NCBI GenBank assembly: GCA_023701005.1
Contig: JAMPXW010000001.1
Span: 35,769 to 99,768 of the forward strand
Direction of reading: 5' to 3'
Source: Burkholderiales bacterium
Lineage (GTDB): Bacteria > Patescibacteriota > Minisyncoccia > Phycocordibacterales > UBA9973
DNA length: 64,000 nucleotides
This document shows positions 31,686 to 54,379 of this stretch, piece by piece (position 1 is the stretch's first letter; every line of letters starts with the position of its first letter). Under the pieces are notes generated by a model, which had not been told where the DNA came from, did not search any database, and saw nothing but the letters and a program-made list of their open reading frames with translations. The translations under genes and the position numbers were made by a program.

Positions 31686-31720
31686 AAAAACCTCCCGAGG
31701 ATAACCCTCGGGAGGTTTTT
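31686..31720. terminator. hairpin AACCTCCCGAGG-ATAAC-CCTCGGGAGGTT flanked by A5/T5; serves as tig terminator and as left REP-like hairpin of the transposase
   Basis: Seen directly. The same CCCGAGGATAACCCTCGGG palindrome recurs at 32379..32399. Confidence 0.6.
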
Positions 31721-32402
31721 ATGTTATGATTACTACATGGAACGAAAAACAAAACTCGAGGTAGAGGAATTCTATCATATATATAATCGTGGTGTAGAAA
31801 AACGAAAAATATTTCAAGTTTATTCTGATTACAAAAGATTCCTGGCTTTACTTTATATCGCAAACAATGACCAACCATTACACATAAAAGATTTCGGTTA
31901 TATGTCCCTCGAAGAAATCTTTAAACAAGATCGTGGGGAACAATTAGTAGCAATAGGAGCATATTGCCTAATGCCGAATCATTTTCATTTATTACTTACT
32001 CCCCTTGTAGATGGAGGGATATCAAAATTTATGTTAAAACTTCAAACCGGGTATTCTATGTATTTTAATAAAAAAAATGATAGAGTTGGTCCATTATTTC
32101 AAGGAACTTTCAAATCAAAACACGCAACCGATGATTTATATTTAAAATATATTTATGCATATATTCACCTCAATCCAGCAAAACTAAAAAATCCAAATTG
32201 GAAAACTCAGTCAAGAAGTTTTTTAACTGAACTTGAAAAATTTGTTGCTGAATATCCATATTCAAGTTTACAAGAATACATTTCTTTAAATTATAAGATA
32301 ATAAATCCAGCACCATTCCCCGTTGAAGGGAAAGACATAATAGATTACGACACTATAATAAACGATTTTTCTGAATTTCCCGAGGATAACCCTCGGGAGA
32401 TT
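31686..32402 (+). mobile_element. REP-associated tyrosine transposase (IS200/IS605-like Y1 HuH) unit flanked by identical palindromic hairpins
   Basis: A TnpA-like CDS lies between two copies of CCCGAGGATAACCCTCGGG. Confidence 0.5.
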
Positions 32403-32405
32403 TAA
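31737..32405 (+). CDS. IS200-like/RAYT Y1 transposase
   Basis: HuH motif MPNHFHLL, GPLFQGTF, catalytic Tyr region YIYAYIHLNPAK and RAYT-like YPYSSLQEY. The C-terminal codons overlap the right hairpin. Confidence 0.65.
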   Translation: MERKTKLEVEEFYHIYNRGVEKRKIFQVYSDYKRFLALLYIANNDQPLHIKDFGYMSLEEIFKQDRGEQLVAIGAYCLMPNHFHLLLTPLVDGGISKFMLKLQTGYSMYFNKKNDRVGPLFQGTFKSKHATDDLYLKYIYAYIHLNPAKLKNPNWKTQSRSFLTELEKFVAEYPYSSLQEYISLNYKIINPAPFPVEGKDIIDYDTIINDFSEFPEDNPREI

Positions 32406-36960: not shown

Positions 36961-37530
36961 TTAATATTTTCTTATTACTGCCTTTACGACAGCATTAATA
37001 TTCAAAGAATGTTCAGGATAAATATTGTTATATTTTTTATTAGCTGGCTGTAGCCACACCTTATTCCCTTCTTTTCTAAAATACTTCATTGTAAATTCTC
37101 CATCAACTTCTGCTATCACTATCTGCATATCTTTAGCTGTATTCGTTTTTTCCACCAAAACCATATCACCTTTTTCTATGTGTGCATCTATCATAGAGTC
37201 TCCATCAACTTCAAGCATGTAAGTCGATGCTTTATTTTTTACAAGTAAATCGTCTAAGTTTACAGAATCCGCCAACTCTTCTTCGACTGTTGCAGGCAAG
37301 CCTGCAGTCACAAAACCAAGCATCGGAATTTCTCCAAAAGATTGAGAAGGGATTAATCTCCCTAAATGATCTTTAGCTACCAATCCTTCATCGATAAGTT
37401 TGTTAACAATTTTAAAAACTGCATTCTTGGATTTAAAACTAAAAATATCCATCATCTCCCTGTATGTTGGCATTCTTTTGTTTTTGGAATAAAAATCTTC
37501 TATTTTTGTCTGGTAAATATTTTTAGCCAT
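36961..37530 (-). CDS. lexA: LexA repressor
   Basis: N-terminal wHTH and C-terminal S24 peptidase with LGFVTAGLPA (cleavage site), GDSM (Ser) and a Lys dyad region. Confidence 0.85.
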   Translation of the reverse strand: MAKNIYQTKIEDFYSKNKRMPTYREMMDIFSFKSKNAVFKIVNKLIDEGLVAKDHLGRLIPSQSFGEIPMLGFVTAGLPATVEEELADSVNLDDLLVKNKASTYMLEVDGDSMIDAHIEKGDMVLVEKTNTAKDMQIVIAEVDGEFTMKYFRKEGNKVWLQPANKKYNNIYPEHSLNINAVVKAVIRKY

Positions 37531-37533
37531 AAA

Positions 37534-37743
37534 TTAGAAAAAGGAAGCGATTCTAAAACTAGGAGAAGAAAGGAGTCTCTTGAAAAAAGATTGTCTATTG
37601 TAAAAACGGACTTTCTTCAAAAGAAGTTTGTGGTCATGAGCTTCTTTTTTATATTCTTCCCCCCTTAATATCTTGAAATCAATTATTCTATTGATTCTCG
37701 CTATCTCCTTCTCTATTGTTTTTAAATATTGTTTTTGTGACAT
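37534..37743 (-). CDS. small basic ORF upstream of lexA, possibly co-transcribed
   Basis: 69-aa ORF with an AGGGA RBS. It ends 4 nt before the lexA start. Function unknown. Confidence 0.3.
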   Translation of the reverse strand: MSQKQYLKTIEKEIARINRIIDFKILRGEEYKKEAHDHKLLLKKVRFYNRQSFFKRLLSSPSFRIASFF

Positions 37744-37819
37744 ACGCTTATTCCCTGCAAACTTTATGCAAAGCAGGATTTATTAAATTATTACTAAATG
37801 ACCTATGTGTATAGTATAG

Positions 37820-37835
37820 GTGAACGAGCGTTCAC
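37820..37835. promoter_or_regulatory. Cheo-type LexA/SOS box GTGAACGAGCGTTCAC (GAAC-N4-GTTC)
   Basis: Perfect palindrome upstream of the small-ORF-lexA operon. Confidence 0.55.
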
Positions 37836-37848
37836 TGTCAAATACTTC

Positions 37849-37880
37849 CCTGTGGATAACCAGACAAGGGCGGCCCTTTT
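37849..37880. repeat. GC-rich dispersed repeat, copy A: CTGTGGATAACC-AGAC-AAGGGCGGCCCTT (contains perfect DnaA-box TTATCCACA on the minus strand)
   Basis: Seen directly. Related copies lie at 42011 and 62049. Confidence 0.5.
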
Positions 37881-38040: not shown

Positions 38041-38391
38041 GTGATTAGGAAAAACAAAAATCAGAAGGAGCATGAAATGGAAAACTCTTATTTTAATTTA
38101 GTAATTTTAGTTTTTTTAATTACCGCAAAAATTCTTTTATCATTCCAGGTGATAAAAGAATTGAAATGGTTCGCAAAGATAAATAAAAAAACCCTAAAAA
38201 GATCGCTTGAACTTGTTATTAACAAAGTTCATCCGATATTACTTGCGGTGATGGGGTTAAATTTATCTTATATAATTCCTGGGACAAGATTGATAACTAT
38301 CTTTGTTTTTATGGGTTTATCTATCTTGTTATTTGTCGGAATATTTTTAACGATGTTAGGAGTATTCTACAAATGGATACAAAATAATTAA
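38041..38391 (+). CDS. hypothetical membrane protein
   Basis: 116-aa ORF with three TM helices, followed by terminator GCCACCGGAAG...CTTCCAAGGTGGC plus T-run. Confidence 0.45.
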   Translation: MIRKNKNQKEHEMENSYFNLVILVFLITAKILLSFQVIKELKWFAKINKKTLKRSLELVINKVHPILLAVMGLNLSYIIPGTRLITIFVFMGLSILLFVGIFLTMLGVFYKWIQNN

Positions 38392-38543
38392 GCCACCGGA
38401 AGAGCCATCTTCCAAGGTGGCTTTTTCTTTTTTATTTATTAATTAGAGAGAGCCAATATCTATTTACAAACTTATAAAAAGGTCTAATATCAAAGAGAAG
38501 GCTATTTTGACAAAAATTCATAAACAATCTCATAGGAGAAACT

Positions 38544-38990
38544 ATGAAAAAACAAACTCTCATATTGTTATTTATTTGCCTTACTCTAACTATCAACGCC
38601 CAAATGGTAACTGACCAAAAAGTACCAGTTTTAAAAACCGCTCAAGAAACTTCATCTATAATTAATTCCCTCTTCTCAAATATACAAAAAGAAAAAGGTA
38701 TTAATGTAGACGTAAACAGCAGAATGGTCGGTGATATTTCAGTAGACAATGTAATCCTCGACGGAATAGTAGTAGCGACAATCCTTTCCGATAAAGGATT
38801 AAAAGCAAAAAAAGAATTATCTACATTCTCAGAATTTGTTCAATTGATCAAAGAATTAAAAGAAGTCGGGAATTTCCAATATCCCAAAATCGTAAATATC
38901 TTTGTATTAAAAGACATCAGAGATGACTATGTAATTCTTGCGATTAGGGAAGGCACCGAAATTCCTTCTTTTGTAAGAAAATTATTGTAA
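38544..38990 (+). CDS. secreted hypothetical protein
   Basis: Signal peptide MKKQTLILLFICLTLTINAQ. Confidence 0.5.
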   Translation: MKKQTLILLFICLTLTINAQMVTDQKVPVLKTAQETSSIINSLFSNIQKEKGINVDVNSRMVGDISVDNVILDGIVVATILSDKGLKAKKELSTFSEFVQLIKELKEVGNFQYPKIVNIFVLKDIRDDYVILAIREGTEIPSFVRKLL

Positions 38991-39077: not shown

Positions 39078-40649
39078 TTACGAAGTAACTTTTGGCCTGT
39101 ATTGTATCGCTTCGAGAATATGGTTTGAATTTATTTCTAAAGAATTTTCTAAGTCTGCAATAGTGCGGGCTATTTTTATTACTCTATGATACGCACGAGC
39201 AGAAAGTGCGAGGCGTTCAGCGCTATCATCCAAAAGCTGTCTTGTCTTTTCATCTAGCTTCACCATATTTGATAAATCTTTCACATTCATTTCACTGTTC
39301 GTTTTTATATCTCTTTTAAAATTTTCAAATCTTTTTTTCTGAACTTCTCGTGCATTAGTCACTCTATATTTTATCCTATCACTCGTCTCTCCGTTTCCTA
39401 TTTCTCCAAGTTTTTTATAATCTACATTTCCTACAGAAACCCAAAGATCAATACGATCCATAATAGGGCCAGACAATTTTCTTTTATATCTATCCAAATC
39501 CGAAGGTCTACAAATACAAACCCTTTGTTTGCTAGTAGCATTGCCACAAGGACAAGGGTTCATGGCAGCAACCAAAATAAAATTTGATGGGAAAGTGGCT
39601 GTGCCCTTAGCGCGAGAAATAGAAACGATATTATCTTCCAATGGCTGTCGCAAAGATTCGATGACTTTCTTTTCAAACTCTGGAAATTCATCCAAAAAGA
39701 GAACACCCTTGTGTGCCAAGGTCACTTCACCCGGCTTAGGATATGTTCCTCCACCTATAATAGATACATAAGAAGAAGTGTGATGAGGTGATCTAAATGG
39801 AGGAGAAGAAATGAGTTCCCCTCTTGTTGCTCCTGCAACAGAATGTATGCCCGTGATTTCCAAAACTTCATCAAGTTTTAAATCTGGAAGTAGCTGAGAG
39901 AAAGCCCTGGCGAGCATTGTCTTCCCTGTACCTGGTGGTCCATACATTGCGATATTATGTCCACCAGCTGCTGCTATTTCCAATCCTCTCTTTGCTCCCT
40001 CTTGCCCTTTCACATCTGAAAAATCAGAACCTCTACTTTCTTTTTTATAAACAATCTGTGTTTTTGATTGAACTAAAATCAATCCATCACCAAGGGCCGT
40101 CCTTTGGGAACCCTTTAAGGACGGCCCTTTCTTTTCAGAAATATGACCAACAACTTCTTCCAAAGTCTCTGCTCCAAAAATCTTTATACCTTCCACCAAG
40201 GCTGCTTCGACAGCATTTTCTTTGGGCAAATAAACTTCTTCATATCCAGCTTTTTTAGCTTCCATGACCAATGGCAAGGCTCCTCTTATTCTTCTCAATG
40301 TACCATCTAGCCCAAGCTCGCCCAAGAAAATTTTCTTTTCTGAATTAAATTTCAAATCTTCACAAGCCAACATGTATGCGAGGGCAATAGCTAAATCAAA
40401 AAACGGCCCCTCTTTTTTAAGATCAGCCGGTGAAAGCGAAACTATTATTTTTTGATTTTTGGCTTTCGGAGACTTAAAACCAGAATTTTTTATAGCAGAG
40501 CTCACCCTATCTTTAGATTCATCTACAGCTTTATCAGGAAGTCCAACAATGTTAAAAGTATGCAAGCCCTTCGACAAATCTACTTCGATCGTTACGATCT
40601 GACCCGAGAGGAGATTTACTTGTGCCGAATAAACTCGTGCAAAGCTCAT
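39078..40649 (-). CDS. YifB/ComM-family Mg-chelatase-like AAA+ ATPase
   Basis: N-terminal Lon-like domain, Walker A GPPGTGKTMLA and the ChlI-family C-terminus. Confidence 0.85.
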   Translation of the reverse strand: MSFARVYSAQVNLLSGQIVTIEVDLSKGLHTFNIVGLPDKAVDESKDRVSSAIKNSGFKSPKAKNQKIIVSLSPADLKKEGPFFDLAIALAYMLACEDLKFNSEKKIFLGELGLDGTLRRIRGALPLVMEAKKAGYEEVYLPKENAVEAALVEGIKIFGAETLEEVVGHISEKKGPSLKGSQRTALGDGLILVQSKTQIVYKKESRGSDFSDVKGQEGAKRGLEIAAAGGHNIAMYGPPGTGKTMLARAFSQLLPDLKLDEVLEITGIHSVAGATRGELISSPPFRSPHHTSSYVSIIGGGTYPKPGEVTLAHKGVLFLDEFPEFEKKVIESLRQPLEDNIVSISRAKGTATFPSNFILVAAMNPCPCGNATSKQRVCICRPSDLDRYKRKLSGPIMDRIDLWVSVGNVDYKKLGEIGNGETSDRIKYRVTNAREVQKKRFENFKRDIKTNSEMNVKDLSNMVKLDEKTRQLLDDSAERLALSARAYHRVIKIARTIADLENSLEINSNHILEAIQYRPKVTS

Positions 40650-42010: not shown

Positions 42011-42043
42011 CTGTGGATAACCGGGTAAGGGCCGCCCTTCAAC
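42011..42043. repeat. GC-rich dispersed repeat, copy B: CTGTGGATAACCGGGTAAGGGCCGCCCTTCAAC
   Basis: Seen directly in the 56-bp gap between two co-oriented genes. Confidence 0.5.
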
Positions 42044-42046
42044 CAC

Positions 42047-43765
42047 CTAATACACCTCTCCATTATAACATTTCTCACAATACACAATCTCTGGTCGATC
42101 AGGAGAATAAGAAGTTTCAAATTCATTAGTGCAGTTTTCTTTCATGCACTTCCTATGCCAGAGTTTTAAGGGATTTCTTTGTTTAAATCTAGTATAATAT
42201 CTGCAATTAGAACACAACCTAGGTAAAGGAATATCAAATCTCTTATAAAAAGTTAATTCATCTCGAATTATTTTAAATGCTGTAGTACAACGATCTTTAC
42301 ATTCTCCCTTGTGTTCACATCCTATGATTTCGTTTACTATATCATCTGAAACGTCTTTTATGTCATCCGGTATATCTTTTGGTAAAATAGTGGGTTTATA
42401 ATTACGTGTTTCAGAATCTTTCCAAGACAAGCCACTAGCCAAAATCTCTTCTTTTTCTTTTAAAAAATAGTCTTGAGCTATTGTTTCGTTATAACAAAAT
42501 GGAGATAATTCTGTTGGAAAAAATTCTCCATATTTATAAATATTTCCTTTTTTATCAATGTAAGGCATATCATTCATATGTTTTATAATCTTTTCTCTCA
42601 ATACAAAAAAATCTTCTTTTTTGTATTGTTTATTAAAGATACAATAATGTTTATTCCGTAGACCTAAACAAGCGAAAAGATTAGAAGAATTAAAACAATT
42701 AAACGAATATTCTACATTTTCTGTTGTATATACATTACTACAAAATAAACAATTTTTACCACCCACTCCTGTGTCAAAAGACTCATACCCCAACTCGAGC
42801 ATCCCAACAGCTGGACCACAACTAATGCAATCTTTTATTCCTCTCGCGGTCCAAAATACATCCTTTGAGTCCTCCACTCCACCAGTACTATCAAAACAAT
42901 AATGAGCATTCTTACCATTTTCGATATTATTACCAGAAACATTATAGGAATTCAAAATATGAGCAAAGCGATGAATTGATTTTAATTTCATTTCCTCAAA
43001 ATCTTTCTTTTTTTGTTGAATTGAGGAGTAACTACTTAAATTTATTTCTTTCATTCTCTTCTGATATTCTTCTTTGGTTAATTGTCGATTAAAAAAACAA
43101 TAACTTTTACTCCTCATATTTGAGCACATAAAACAATCCGTGCAACCCCTGCAATCATATAAAAAATATGAATTCACACAATTATGAGAATCTTGACTAT
43201 AAAAAAGTTGATATGAATCAGTACAATTTACATCATCGTAAGAAAACTGTGTTCTATGGACAACATACAAGTCCATCGAATCTTTTATATCAGTTATCGA
43301 ATTAGAATAGAAGACCCTCTCGTTTTTCCAGGAAGCAGATATTAAGTAACAATCCTTACTTTCATCTGCAAAATTACAATAATCACTATTTATTCCTTGT
43401 GAATTTGTGAGGCCTTGCAATGGAAATTTATTTCTAAATTCTGCCCATTGTTCAAAGAAAGGCTTGGAAAAATTGTACTCAATACTATAACTAAAAGGAT
43501 CCCAGCTATCTCCCCACCACGTTTTTTGATCTATTACGATTAAATTTTTATCTGAAGAATAACTTGAGATAAAGTCCTTGCCCCAAAAACTATCTTTTCT
43601 TCTATATAAAGCATGCGTATTTCTGTATGCCAAACGTCTTTGTAATCTACATTCTCTGCAGAAAGTAGGTGGAGGGACTTTTATTTTCTCATAAAAATTA
43701 AAATCTTCAGGCTCTATCGTAAAGTCTTTCTTGCAATTCTGACAGGTTTTATTTTGAGCTTCCAT
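42047..43765 (-). CDS. 572-aa Cys-rich protein with zinc-ribbon-like terminal modules; paralog of 52712..54379
   Basis: N-terminal C..C-FYEK-PPP-C.EC-RRLA.RN and C-terminal FYKR-IPLP-C..C-RNP-L..RKCMK-C.NEFET.YSPDR.EIVYCE.CY modules are shared with the other copy. Internal CxxC-rich repeats. Confidence 0.6.
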   Translation of the reverse strand: MEAQNKTCQNCKKDFTIEPEDFNFYEKIKVPPPTFCRECRLQRRLAYRNTHALYRRKDSFWGKDFISSYSSDKNLIVIDQKTWWGDSWDPFSYSIEYNFSKPFFEQWAEFRNKFPLQGLTNSQGINSDYCNFADESKDCYLISASWKNERVFYSNSITDIKDSMDLYVVHRTQFSYDDVNCTDSYQLFYSQDSHNCVNSYFLYDCRGCTDCFMCSNMRSKSYCFFNRQLTKEEYQKRMKEINLSSYSSIQQKKKDFEEMKLKSIHRFAHILNSYNVSGNNIENGKNAHYCFDSTGGVEDSKDVFWTARGIKDCISCGPAVGMLELGYESFDTGVGGKNCLFCSNVYTTENVEYSFNCFNSSNLFACLGLRNKHYCIFNKQYKKEDFFVLREKIIKHMNDMPYIDKKGNIYKYGEFFPTELSPFCYNETIAQDYFLKEKEEILASGLSWKDSETRNYKPTILPKDIPDDIKDVSDDIVNEIIGCEHKGECKDRCTTAFKIIRDELTFYKRFDIPLPRLCSNCRYYTRFKQRNPLKLWHRKCMKENCTNEFETSYSPDRPEIVYCEKCYNGEVY

Positions 43766-48773: not shown

Positions 48774-48781
48774 TTTAAAAT

Positions 48782-48822
48782 AAAAATAGCCCGCACTAAC
48801 ATGCGGGCTAAATATTTCACTA
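48782..48822. repeat. 41-bp hairpin repeat, copy 1: AAAAATAGCCCGCACTAACATGCGGGCTAAATATTTCACTA (terminator-like)
   Basis: Near-identical to 49429..49469. Confidence 0.5.
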
Positions 48823-49347: not shown

Positions 49348-49428
49348 CTCATTTTATTTTGAAAAGAATTTTTTTATTTCAAATAAACATTACCACCGAT
49401 TTTGGTACCAGTCAATGCAGGTTTTTTA

Positions 49429-49469
49429 TAAAAATAGCCCGCACTAACATGCGGGCTAAATACTTCACT
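49429..49469. repeat. 41-bp hairpin repeat, copy 2 (one mismatch versus copy 1)
   Basis: Seen directly. Confidence 0.5.
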
Positions 49470-49983
49470 AAACATTAAATTTAAAATAAATTGCCACCTT
49501 TTTGGCTTCGGCGGCCAGATCTCCTTTCTGTTGTACAATAAATTTACAAAACCAATCCAAATATTCTAGACTCCTAAAGCCTAACCCCCAATTTACACTC
49601 TCCAACAGAGAAAATTTTTGTTTAGAAATATGATACATCATATCTCTCGTCATTATAACTTTGCCTTCTTCTAGAAGAGAAGAAACAAAATTAGAAAACC
49701 TAGAAAACGATTCTTTATACTCTCCTGCTTTCATTTCCAGAGATCCAATTGTTTTCAACACATGATTTCTCTGTTCTTGAAAAGAAAGAATATCATCATC
49801 TAGAGAGAAACCAAAAATCTCAAAAAAAATTTTCTTTTCTTTCTCTAGTTCTTCTTTTTCTTGTACTTTTTTCTCACTTTCTCTTTTAGCTTTTAATATT
49901 GGATTAATTCTCCAAAAAAAATAAAAAGCAAAAAGTATTATACCGACAGTAACAACAACGGAAATAACATTCGAGAGTTCCAT
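49468..49983 (-). CDS. hypothetical N-terminally anchored protein
   Basis: 171-aa ORF with TM VISVVVTVGIILFAFYFFW. Confidence 0.4.
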   Translation of the reverse strand: MELSNVISVVVTVGIILFAFYFFWRINPILKAKRESEKKVQEKEELEKEKKIFFEIFGFSLDDDILSFQEQRNHVLKTIGSLEMKAGEYKESFSRFSNFVSSLLEEGKVIMTRDMMYHISKQKFSLLESVNWGLGFRSLEYLDWFCKFIVQQKGDLAAEAKKVAIYFKFNV

Positions 49984-52711: not shown

Positions 52712-54379
52712 ATGAATAAAATTTGCAAAACATGCAAGAAAAGATTTGAAATGGATGAGGGAGATCTAAATTTTTATGAAAAAATGAAGTCTCCTCCACC
52801 AAATTATTGTCCAGAATGTCGTGTAGCACGTAGACTCGCTTTTCGTAATGAAAGAACTTTATATAAAAGAACTTGTAGTAAAAGTGGCAAACCAATAATA
52901 TCTATCTATCCTGAAAATACACCCTTCCCCGTTTACGACCAACATTTTTGGTGGGGAGATGATTGGGAAGCACTAGATTATGGGCAAGACTATAATCCAA
53001 ACAAAACTTTTTTCGAACAATTTCTTGAACTTAGAAATAAAATCCCGAGAATATCTTTGTTAAACATCAACGGAGTAAACAGTGATTATGTAAATAATTC
53101 AGAAGACAATAAAAATTGTTACCTTCTGTTTGCGGCACAGAAAAATGAAGATTGTATGTATGGTAGGTTGGTGTATAGAAGTCGTTTCGTTATTGATAGT
53201 GATTTCGTTCAAGATTCAGAGCTCTGTTACGACTGCATAGATTGCAGGAATTGTTATAATTGTTTACTTTGTGACAATTGCGAGACGAGCACTGACTTAG
53301 TCTCTTGTTTTAATTTAAAAGATTGCCAAAACTGCATTTTCTCAACAAATCTAAGACATAAAAATTATCACATTTTTAATAAACCATTTTCAAAAGAGGA
53401 ATTTGAAGAAAAGAAAAAAGAAATTTTATCTTCATATTCTAATTTAGAAAAAGCAAAAGAGGAATTTGAAGAATTTAAAAAGAAAGCCATTGTGAAATAT
53501 TCTTATCAAGTTAAATGCCATAACGCCACTGGTGATTATATGTACAATTGCCATGATGTTAAGCATGGCTTTGATACTGAAAATTCTAAAAACTGTAGAT
53601 ATGTGGCAGACGCAGAAAGTACGATAGATTGTTGGGATATGAATAATACATATTACAAACCAGAGCTCAATCTAGACGTGATGGGAGCACTGCAAACATA
53701 TAATGTTAAACATTCAGTCTATGCGTTAACTTCAAGTAATATTGAATATTGTGACAGTGTGCACAATTGCGAAAGCTGTTTTGGTTGTGTTGGTTTAAAA
53801 AAGAAAAAATATTGTATTTTGAATAAACAATACACAAAAGAAGAATATGAAAAATTAAAAAAAGAAATAGTAGAGAATATGAAAAAAGAAGGGATCTATG
53901 GAGATTTTATTTCCCCAGAATTATCTCCTTTTGGTTATAATGAAACTCTTGCACAAAACTATATGCCTCTAACAAAAGAAATAGCAAAAGAAAGAGGTTT
54001 CAACTGGCAAGAAGAAACTACAGGAACTTATGGCAAAGAAACAATGGCAAAGATACCTGAAACAATAGAAGAAATAACTGAAGACCCGTCTACAGACGAG
54101 GCAAGTATTTTGAAAGAAATTTTAGTATGTGAAGAATGTAAGAAAAATTTTAGAATAACAAAAGCTGAATTAGATTTTTACAAAAGGATGAATATTCCTT
54201 TACCTCATAAAGATTTCGAATGCAGGCACAGAGAAAGAATGTCTAAAAGAAATCCTCGAAAACTCTGGAATAGGAAATGCATGAAAGACGGTTGTCAAAA
54301 TGAATTTGAAACAGCCTATTCCCCAGATAGATCTGAAATAGTATATTGTGAATCTTGTTATCAACAAGAAATTTATTAA
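52712..54379 (+). CDS. 555-aa Cys-rich protein; paralog of 42047..43765
   Basis: Shares the N- and C-terminal zinc-ribbon-like modules and internal CxxC repeats with the other copy. Confidence 0.6.
   Translation: MNKICKTCKKRFEMDEGDLNFYEKMKSPPPNYCPECRVARRLAFRNERTLYKRTCSKSGKPIISIYPENTPFPVYDQHFWWGDDWEALDYGQDYNPNKTFFEQFLELRNKIPRISLLNINGVNSDYVNNSEDNKNCYLLFAAQKNEDCMYGRLVYRSRFVIDSDFVQDSELCYDCIDCRNCYNCLLCDNCETSTDLVSCFNLKDCQNCIFSTNLRHKNYHIFNKPFSKEEFEEKKKEILSSYSNLEKAKEEFEEFKKKAIVKYSYQVKCHNATGDYMYNCHDVKHGFDTENSKNCRYVADAESTIDCWDMNNTYYKPELNLDVMGALQTYNVKHSVYALTSSNIEYCDSVHNCESCFGCVGLKKKKYCILNKQYTKEEYEKLKKEIVENMKKEGIYGDFISPELSPFGYNETLAQNYMPLTKEIAKERGFNWQEETTGTYGKETMAKIPETIEEITEDPSTDEASILKEILVCEECKKNFRITKAELDFYKRMNIPLPHKDFECRHRERMSKRNPRKLWNRKCMKDGCQNEFETAYSPDRSEIVYCESCYQQEIY

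Follow-up and report, generated by a model that had tools for sequence, protein, structure and literature searches.

The window analysed here, a single 64-kb stretch of DNA with a GC content of 32%, carries three copies of a compact module in which CTGTGGATAAC and AAGGGCSGCCCTT are separated by five nucleotides (at 37850, 42011 and 62048, all on the plus strand), as well as a fourth occurrence of the first element, hereafter the box, that stands by itself. The gene content of the window and all of its relatives point to the Paceibacteria/Nomurabacteria (CPR), and the NCBI label 'Burkholderiales bacterium' is therefore probably wrong. The four sites are the following:

37850..37878, plus strand: copy A, comprising the box CTGTGGATAAC (37850-37860), a 5-nt spacer and the palindrome AAGGGCGGCCCTT (37866-37878)
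42011..42039, plus strand: copy B, box and AAGGGCCGCCCTT, between the stop codon of a 572-aa ORF (42047) and the ATG of a 290-aa ORF (41990)
62048..62076, plus strand: copy C, box and AAGGGCCGCCCTT, upstream of the LysM-M23 peptidase gene (60818-61948)
58648..58658, plus strand: fourth box, without a hairpin, heading a conserved non-coding block (58644-58688) in the tRNA-Arg/UPF0102 spacer

A preliminary description of this DNA had proposed three copies sharing box and palindrome and a fourth core lacking the hairpin. Both proposals were borne out, as a search with the pattern CTGTGGATAACNNNNNAAGGGCSGCCCTT and up to three mismatches returned no site in the 64-kb window beyond the three modules and none in 100 dinucleotide-preserving shuffles, and the solitary box was found at 58648-58658; the coordinates given earlier were one base off for copies A and C. 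There are four occurrences of the perfect 9-mer TGTGGATAA in the window, every one within CTGTGGATAAC, i.e. with the flanking G present, against a chance expectation of about 0.8 per window from base composition (slightly above the 0.5 estimated previously). All four boxes match the DnaA-box consensus (TTATCCACA / TTWTNCACA), and the TTATCCACA motif is the textbook high-affinity DnaA box. Outside the unit of about 30 nt, alignment revealed no mutual similarity between the copies. The modules had been placed 20-110 bp upstream of minus-strand start codons, in agreement with the distances of ~107 nt (A), 21 nt (B) and 100 nt (C) obtained here, and the spacers that hold copies A and C are divergent, with each copy upstream of the promoters on either side.

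The palindrome of the window modules consists of a 5-bp stem and a 3-nt loop with folding energies of -3.3 to -4.7 kcal/mol as single-stranded DNA, and its stability was not significant (z between -0.7 and +0.35). The hairpin with a 5-bp GC stem that had been described thus retains its stem and triloop and loses any claim to significant stability, and within the window it is better termed a 13-bp palindrome; relatives of the module hairpin in other genomes have stems of 10-21 bp. An intrinsic terminator was considered for the modules and rejected, copies A and B having no terminator-like site and copy C having one on the plus strand only, where no gene ends, with weak 5-bp stems. No dnaA gene was detected in the window by tblastn and no cluster of boxes either, which places no oriC within it. 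The clustering of copies near dnaA/oriC that the preliminary description had suggested checking is accordingly not seen, dnaA and oriC lying outside the window. Rfam at gathering scores over the whole window and ARAGORN identified four tRNAs and nothing else.

Two side observations concern the genes of the window. The 572-aa ORF next to copy B (42047-43765, minus strand) and a 555-aa ORF (52712-54379, plus strand) are inverted paralogues, 70-80% identical at the nucleotide level over several segments and without a Pfam match, and a module follows the 572-aa ORF only. Many genes of the clade seem to have leaderless starts, with a -10 element (often TGnTATAAT), six nucleotides and ATG, and no Shine-Dalgarno sequence; examples are found at 31722-31739 and 62095-62110 of the window and in three other loci (L008, L162 and L165).

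Conservation of the box at promoters

Copy A is situated upstream of an operon that encodes the SOS repressor LexA, the elements of which are as follows:

37813..37841, minus strand: lexA-operon promoter, TTGACA, 17 nt, TATACT (11/12 consensus matches)
37822-37833: LexA box GAACGCTCGTTC, within the spacer of this promoter
36961..37743, minus strand: operon under copy A, comprising a 69-aa ORF (37534-37743) and LexA (36961-37530; Peptidase_S24)

Read on the minus strand, the box of copy A is followed after 9 nt by the lexA -35 element. For comparison, 80 metagenomic loci were fetched whose LexA orthologues share 75-85% identity, and the architecture of the promoter recurs in 75 loci. In 62 of 66 distinct lexA promoters, a set that includes those of the window, the related metagenome-assembled genome SMAG_U3062 and one further genome, a perfect TTATCCACA lies 8-11 nt upstream of the -35 element, the distance being 9 nt in 53; the four exceptions read TTTTCCACA (twice), TTATCAACA and TTATCCACC. 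Information content at lexA amounts to 1.8-2.0 bits in the box columns versus at most 0.4 bits in the 18 columns farther upstream, where the DNA is unrelated among loci and often holds the comM stop codon or an arbitrary hairpin. Most of the 66 promoters have no related hairpin beside the box. Such a hairpin does lie 4-5 nt from the lexA box in three lineages, each time as the variant of that genome, and the pairing may have originated from targeted insertion 3' of GGATAAC or from conversion between copies.

The 69-aa ORF between promoter and lexA is kept in 77 related loci and could be assigned to no family; its product is possibly an SOS-associated small protein. Two plus-strand ORFs of 116 and 148 aa (38041-38990) separate comM from the lexA operon in the window, and in most relatives the end of comM directly abuts the lexA DnaA box.

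At copy C the minus strand reads box, 6 nt and TTGACT (62037-62042), and two other genomes (L149 and L150) keep a box-N5-TTGACT arrangement, without the hairpin, ahead of their M23 orthologue. The fourth box is conserved at the syntenic place in SMAG_U3062, which is 65-75% identical to the window at the nucleotide level and partly syntenic with it. The box belongs there to a conserved block of about 45 nt in the tRNA-Arg/UPF0102 spacer, AAAACTGTGGATAACTnTGnnGGTAATGnnTATAAAGGAC, whose positions 58644-58688 in the window correspond to 6168-6210 of L057. The TGGATA-N17-TATAAA contained in this block could be a promoter with its -35 element inside the DnaA box. Rfam gave no match at E ≤ 1 over 58560-58900, so a small RNA at 58644-58688 is rated as possible. 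The minus strand of copy B reads box, 9 nt and TAAATT-N6-ATG, and the box is absent from three orthologous spacers, which carry other hairpins. Conservation as a promoter site thus applies to copies A and C and the solitary fourth box only, copy B being lineage-specific.

The same motif accompanies the initiator gene of the clade. In the rpmH-dnaA-dnaN loci of four relatives, TTATC[CA]ACAgyTTATCAACA precedes dnaA and TTATCCACTTATC[CA]ACA precedes dnaN, and the deviations from the box that occur at lexA are found at dnaA as well. Upstream of dnaA in SMAG_U3062 are a double-box palindrome and degenerate boxes, and the DnaA protein of this genome retains GGKDHTTVIHS, including the base-contacting KDHTTVIH, by comparison with a B. 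subtilis reference sequence. Given the conservation at promoters, the TTATC(C/A)ACA pairs at the dnaA genes of the clade and the retention of DHTTV, the box is most likely a DnaA operator, and at copy A, copy C and the fourth box it would be an ancestral one that adjoins or overlaps the promoter.

The repeat family in related genomes

The distribution of the module was examined in a collection of 185,579 species, represented by one genome each, with the pattern TGTGGATAAC-N4-6-AAGGG-N3-5-CCCTT. Several copies per genome were found in CPR genomes only, and the approximately ten single matches elsewhere equal the chance prediction. Four copies with shared flanks had been taken earlier as a sign of a real element, and this holds, given the absence of matches in shuffled sequence and the multi-copy occurrence restricted to CPR genomes. 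As the scan required both parts, the invariance of the box and of AAGGG..CCCTT across lineages is partly built in, and the scan is blind to arrangements other than TGTGGATAAC with AAGGG..CCCTT. Other genomes were read as tiles only, with genes called simply as the longest ORFs.

The family is amplified in SMAG_U3062, where the 410 kb fetched contain 173 hairpins AAGGGGWCCCCTT and 142 perfect boxes, compared with about 3-5 boxes expected by chance. A total of 107 of these boxes are arranged as aCC-TGTGGATAAC-ATGY-hairpin, that is, with four nucleotides between box and hairpin, and 87 of the 107 modules are intergenic in DNA of which some 90% is coding. Convergent spacers are occupied most often (37%), followed by co-directional (27%) and divergent ones (15%). 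Single units exist beside tandem arrays with periods of 31-38 bp and perfect 45-nt palindromes that bear a box on both arms (-24.6 kcal/mol). Where a box arm is present it is intact (0-1 mismatch), and 58 of 169 hairpins lack a box altogether. The orientation of modules relative to genes is weak (41 same, 31 opposite), and TGTGGATAAC modestly favours the strand that is G-rich and coding (72:43, Fisher p 0.008). Polarity is reversed in the four window copies, and no strand rule is therefore drawn.

In each of the other genomes, several loci combine the box with a hairpin variant peculiar to that genome (TATCCAAGGGCATCCCTTGGAT, TTTGAAGGGGGACGCCCTTCA and TAGTCCAAGGGTAGCCCTTGGACTA). Between genomes the outer stem shows covariation, with ATGC/GCAT, ATCC/GGAT, AGTCC/GGACT and TGA/TCA pairs, as read directly off the sequences, a MAFFT alignment of the cross-lineage modules (A2) having left the stems out of register.

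A palindrome of the module-hairpin type also occurs without a box in the window:

40092..40129, plus strand: box-less palindrome AAGGGCCGTCCTT-N12-AAGGACGGCCCTT, -15.6 kcal/mol

This palindrome lies in frame within a comM-like gene (39078-40649, minus strand), where its position is exactly that of a 10-aa insertion relative to an orthologue of 86% identity. The box-less state of this insertion and of 58 of the 169 hairpins in SMAG_U3062 indicates that the hairpin moves independently of the box.

A DNA uptake sequence was considered and rejected, as copies are almost exclusively intergenic and number about three per 64 kb in the window versus about one per 4 kb in SMAG_U3062. The literature on the motif, on DnaA boxes in Patescibacteria and on RAYT/REPIN in CPR yielded no prior description. 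As a separate observation, SMAG_U3062 has a second abundant palindrome family, AAGGGTCCACCTTCGCCnnnGGCGAAGGCGGACCCTT, which often adjoins box-plus-hairpin units (L014, L028, L063 and other tiles).

A RAYT-like gene and its flanking hairpins

A candidate enzyme gene for the repeat family is present in the window together with two hairpins:

31737..32405, plus strand: RAYT-like HUH/Y1 transposase gene, 222 aa, with HFH at residues 82-84 and Y142-x3-N146
31691..31715, plus strand: left flanking hairpin CCTCCCGAGG-ATAAC-CCTCGGGAGG, -17.6 kcal/mol, z -8.5
32374..32402, plus strand: right flanking hairpin TCCCGAGG-ATAAC-CCTCGGGA, within the last RAYT codons, -10.2 kcal/mol, z -4.0

The first lead to this gene came from weak tblastn matches (E 0.5-6) with IS200 TnpA and E. 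coli RAYT sequences as queries. The protein matches Pfam Y1_Tnp above the cutoff (E 5e-8), and its sole NCBIfam match is REP_Tyr_transpos at 40 bits, below the 80-bit cutoff. H82-F-H84 and Y142/N146 are invariant in 39 homologous sequences. The best PDB fold match of the AlphaFold model (pLDDT 72) is 4ER8, the E. coli TnpA-REP with a REP hairpin (E 1.6e-5), ahead of the IS608 and ISDra2 transposases. No DnaA_C-like domain was found in the C-terminus at E ≤ 10 in Pfam, and a PDB sequence search returned noise. To our knowledge, no RAYT transposition has ever been demonstrated.

The two flanking hairpins have the same (direct) orientation and both bear GGATAAC at the loop, a heptamer that occurs seven times in the window, all on one strand and six times in these elements. 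Their stems (CCCGAGG-ATAAC-CCTCGGG) differ from that of the three modules and have GGATAAC alone in common with them, so the cognate pairing of RAYT and module in this genome stays putative. The left hairpin is placed between an A run and a T run directly 3' of the tig stop codon, and it probably doubles as the tig terminator. The synteny of tig and RAYT is common to two relatives, and L097 has tig beside clpP without RAYT.

Homologues of the RAYT-like gene lie at most 100 nt from modules in five of the six other module-bearing genomes (SMAG, JAZKJH, JBAYUN, CAYLQJ and JACRNA), on tiles that were fetched via the DNA pattern alone and not via the gene. In three of these five, the genome's own hairpin forms the end of the RAYT ORF, and in two of the three (L026 and L038) the TAG is directly followed by TTATCCACA. 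The RAYT loci fetched via the protein bear hairpins of AAGGG- or GAGGG-type just before a leaderless TATAAT-N6-ATG start. These loci (L162 and L165) have hairpins and no box, which indicates that the box is not an obligatory recognition element of RAYT.

Origin and role of the modules

With somewhat more conviction than doubt, we propose that the modules are REP-like units composed of a DnaA-box head, which is an ancestral operator, and a genome-specific hairpin tied to the RAYT-like transposase, and that their spread makes new boxes. DnaA would most likely bind the box at copies A and C and at the fourth box, coupling the expression of the respective genes to replication status. In some lineages the box became the head of a repeat unit and was therefore multiplied with it. 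The RAYT-like enzyme, or recombination between copies, would most likely spread and homogenise the hairpin, with or without the box, and spread of the unit would create new DnaA boxes, such as copy B at the gene for the 290-aa membrane protein and more than 100 in SMAG_U3062. A more far-reaching version, which is conceivable and to be regarded as tentative, holds that a RAYT-linked REP family in CPR captured or targets the DnaA box, so that a domesticated HUH system spreads DnaA sites and titrates DnaA. The preliminary description had listed DnaA-dependent control sites and a REP/MITE-like family as separate readings; these find support jointly and no longer as alternatives, the former in the box footprinted at fixed promoter positions and matching those at the dnaA loci of the clade, the latter in the REP-like behaviour of the unit and its association with a RAYT-like transposase. 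Taken together, the sequence patterns are best described as a putative REP/RAYT-like repeat family headed by a DnaA box, with DnaA binding and RAYT action as its predicted activities.

If the sites were purely regulatory DnaA sites, the hairpins would be ordinary terminators or insulators that came to lie beside the box through short spacers, and the RAYT-like gene would be uninvolved. Many lexA loci indeed have an unrelated hairpin 0-7 nt upstream of the box, often with a T run, the orthologous spacers of copy B hold other hairpins at the same place, and copy C is terminator-like on the plus strand. This account is nevertheless unlikely in view of the repetition of one 13-mer at a constant 5-nt spacing three times in the window and of a 13-mer of its own in each of the other genomes. 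Moreover, copies A and C in their divergent spacers have nothing to terminate, a terminator score is obtained for copy C alone, on the plus strand (CAACTTTTTT), with none for A and B and weak stems throughout, SMAG_U3062 has tandem arrays of the unit, and units flank RAYT genes in five genomes. The converse account, in which the family is only a selfish or domesticated REP and TGTGGATAAC a linear head read by the RAYT-like enzyme, with no functional meaning in its DnaA-box identity, draws on the position of the box 4-5 nt 5' of the hairpin, where a REP head would be, on the GGATAAC in both RAYT-flanking loops (seven in the window on one strand, six in these elements), and on the 142 boxes in SMAG_U3062, most of which must stem from spread of the unit because about 25 would be expected from the window density. 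It does not readily accommodate a box at fixed distance in 62 of 66 lexA promoters, mostly without a related hairpin, rare variants that are those DnaA boxes tolerate, the same motif in the dnaA promoter and the dnaA-dnaN spacer, or the RAYT loci L162 and L165 with hairpins and no box; a repeat head would also be unlikely to match the whole 9-mer consensus by chance, and we consider this account improbable.

Conservation by itself does not name the binder, and the box might be the operator of another transcription factor, for example the conserved product of the 69-aa ORF upstream of lexA, which is kept in 77 loci and belongs to no assigned family. The box agrees perfectly with the DnaA consensus, however, flanking G included, the motif stands in tandem at dnaA and dnaN, and domain IV of DnaA is canonical, all of which make another factor very unlikely. 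Hardly any credence can be given to an element acting at the RNA level, be it a small RNA, a processing site or a stabilising 3' hairpin. The location of copy B between two co-directional genes would suit it, and E. coli REPs stabilise upstream mRNA, but Rfam gives no match, the orientation relative to genes is inconsistent (41 same and 31 opposite in SMAG_U3062), copies A and C precede the promoters on either side of them, and the window stems are weak.

With the REP/REPIN and RAYT systems of E. coli and Pseudomonas (4ER8), the family shares short GC-rich palindromes with a conserved linear 5' head, intergenic dispersal as singlets, inverted pairs and tandem clusters with a preference for convergent and co-directional spacers, and a single HUH/Y1 gene with Y-x3-N, which the repeats flank in the five genomes named above. 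It differs in that the head is a DnaA box of 10-11 nt rather than the GTAG of E. coli, the host is a CPR bacterium, and the protein is a distant relative of RAYT below the NCBIfam cutoff. In addition, the hairpin forms the last RAYT codons in several CPR genomes, and the two flanking hairpins of the window are direct and not inverted. The BIME and RIP (RIB) elements of E. coli are REP clusters carrying an IHF site, and likewise combine palindromic units with a site for a host DNA-binding protein, scattered over intergenic regions; the partner here would be DnaA instead of IHF, and its site lies 5' of one hairpin and not between two REPs. Known DnaA operators and titration loci (dnaA autoregulation, nrdAB, B. 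subtilis sda/ywlC and datA) have in common with the present sites TTATCCACA at core promoters and many high-affinity boxes outside oriC. The targets here, namely the lexA operon, the LysM-M23 peptidase gene and the tRNA-Arg spacer, are new, and a repeat family multiplies the boxes, in contrast to datA with its one fixed cluster. Rickettsia palindromic elements (RPE) share the in-frame insertion into a coding gene (40092-40129) and have no sequence relation, one such case being seen here.

The sequence pattern of the RAYT-like protein looks like that of Y1 subclass 2.1, for which no REP-like sequences beside the genes were reported (Quentin et al. 2018, PMC6006769). Some members of this subclass possess a C-terminal Bac_DnaA_C-like domain, from which a link to the replication origin or fork has been proposed, and the flanking repeats cited for the subclass are unlike DnaA boxes (PMC6006769). 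By contrast with subclass 2.1/TIRYT, the CPR genes are flanked by REP-like hairpins and DnaA boxes, and their protein has no detectable DnaA_C domain. The present family would supply REP-like partners for a Y1 protein resembling a subclass reported without them (PMC6006769), and, if the proposal is true, DnaA-box REPs would be the missing partner of the DnaA_C-like domains in some subclass 2.1 proteins.

In CPR/Patescibacteria, recognisable regulators are few, and hardly any cis elements have been defined by experiment. The phylogenetically footprinted operator, most likely that of DnaA, before an SOS repressor operon and a cell-wall hydrolase gene suggests that in these tiny CPR genomes DnaA works as a transcription factor through which the control of DNA damage and the separation of cells are linked to replication. 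No REP/RAYT-like system seems to have been described in CPR before this repeat family, which, as it multiplies initiator sites, makes initiator titration and regulatory rewiring testable. If true, RAYT-linked capture of a DnaA box would connect REP/RAYT biology with the control of replication by a direct mechanism, and would entail at least 142 high-affinity DnaA sites in 0.41 Mb of one metagenome-assembled genome as well as new DnaA-controlled promoters, for example at copy B.

A further repeat of the window is a 43-nt direct repeat with 98% identity between its copies (48780-48822 and 49428-49470), which contains the hairpin AGCCCGCA-CTAAC-ATGCGGGCT and is found once 3' of each of two tandem paralogous ORFs of about 175 aa.
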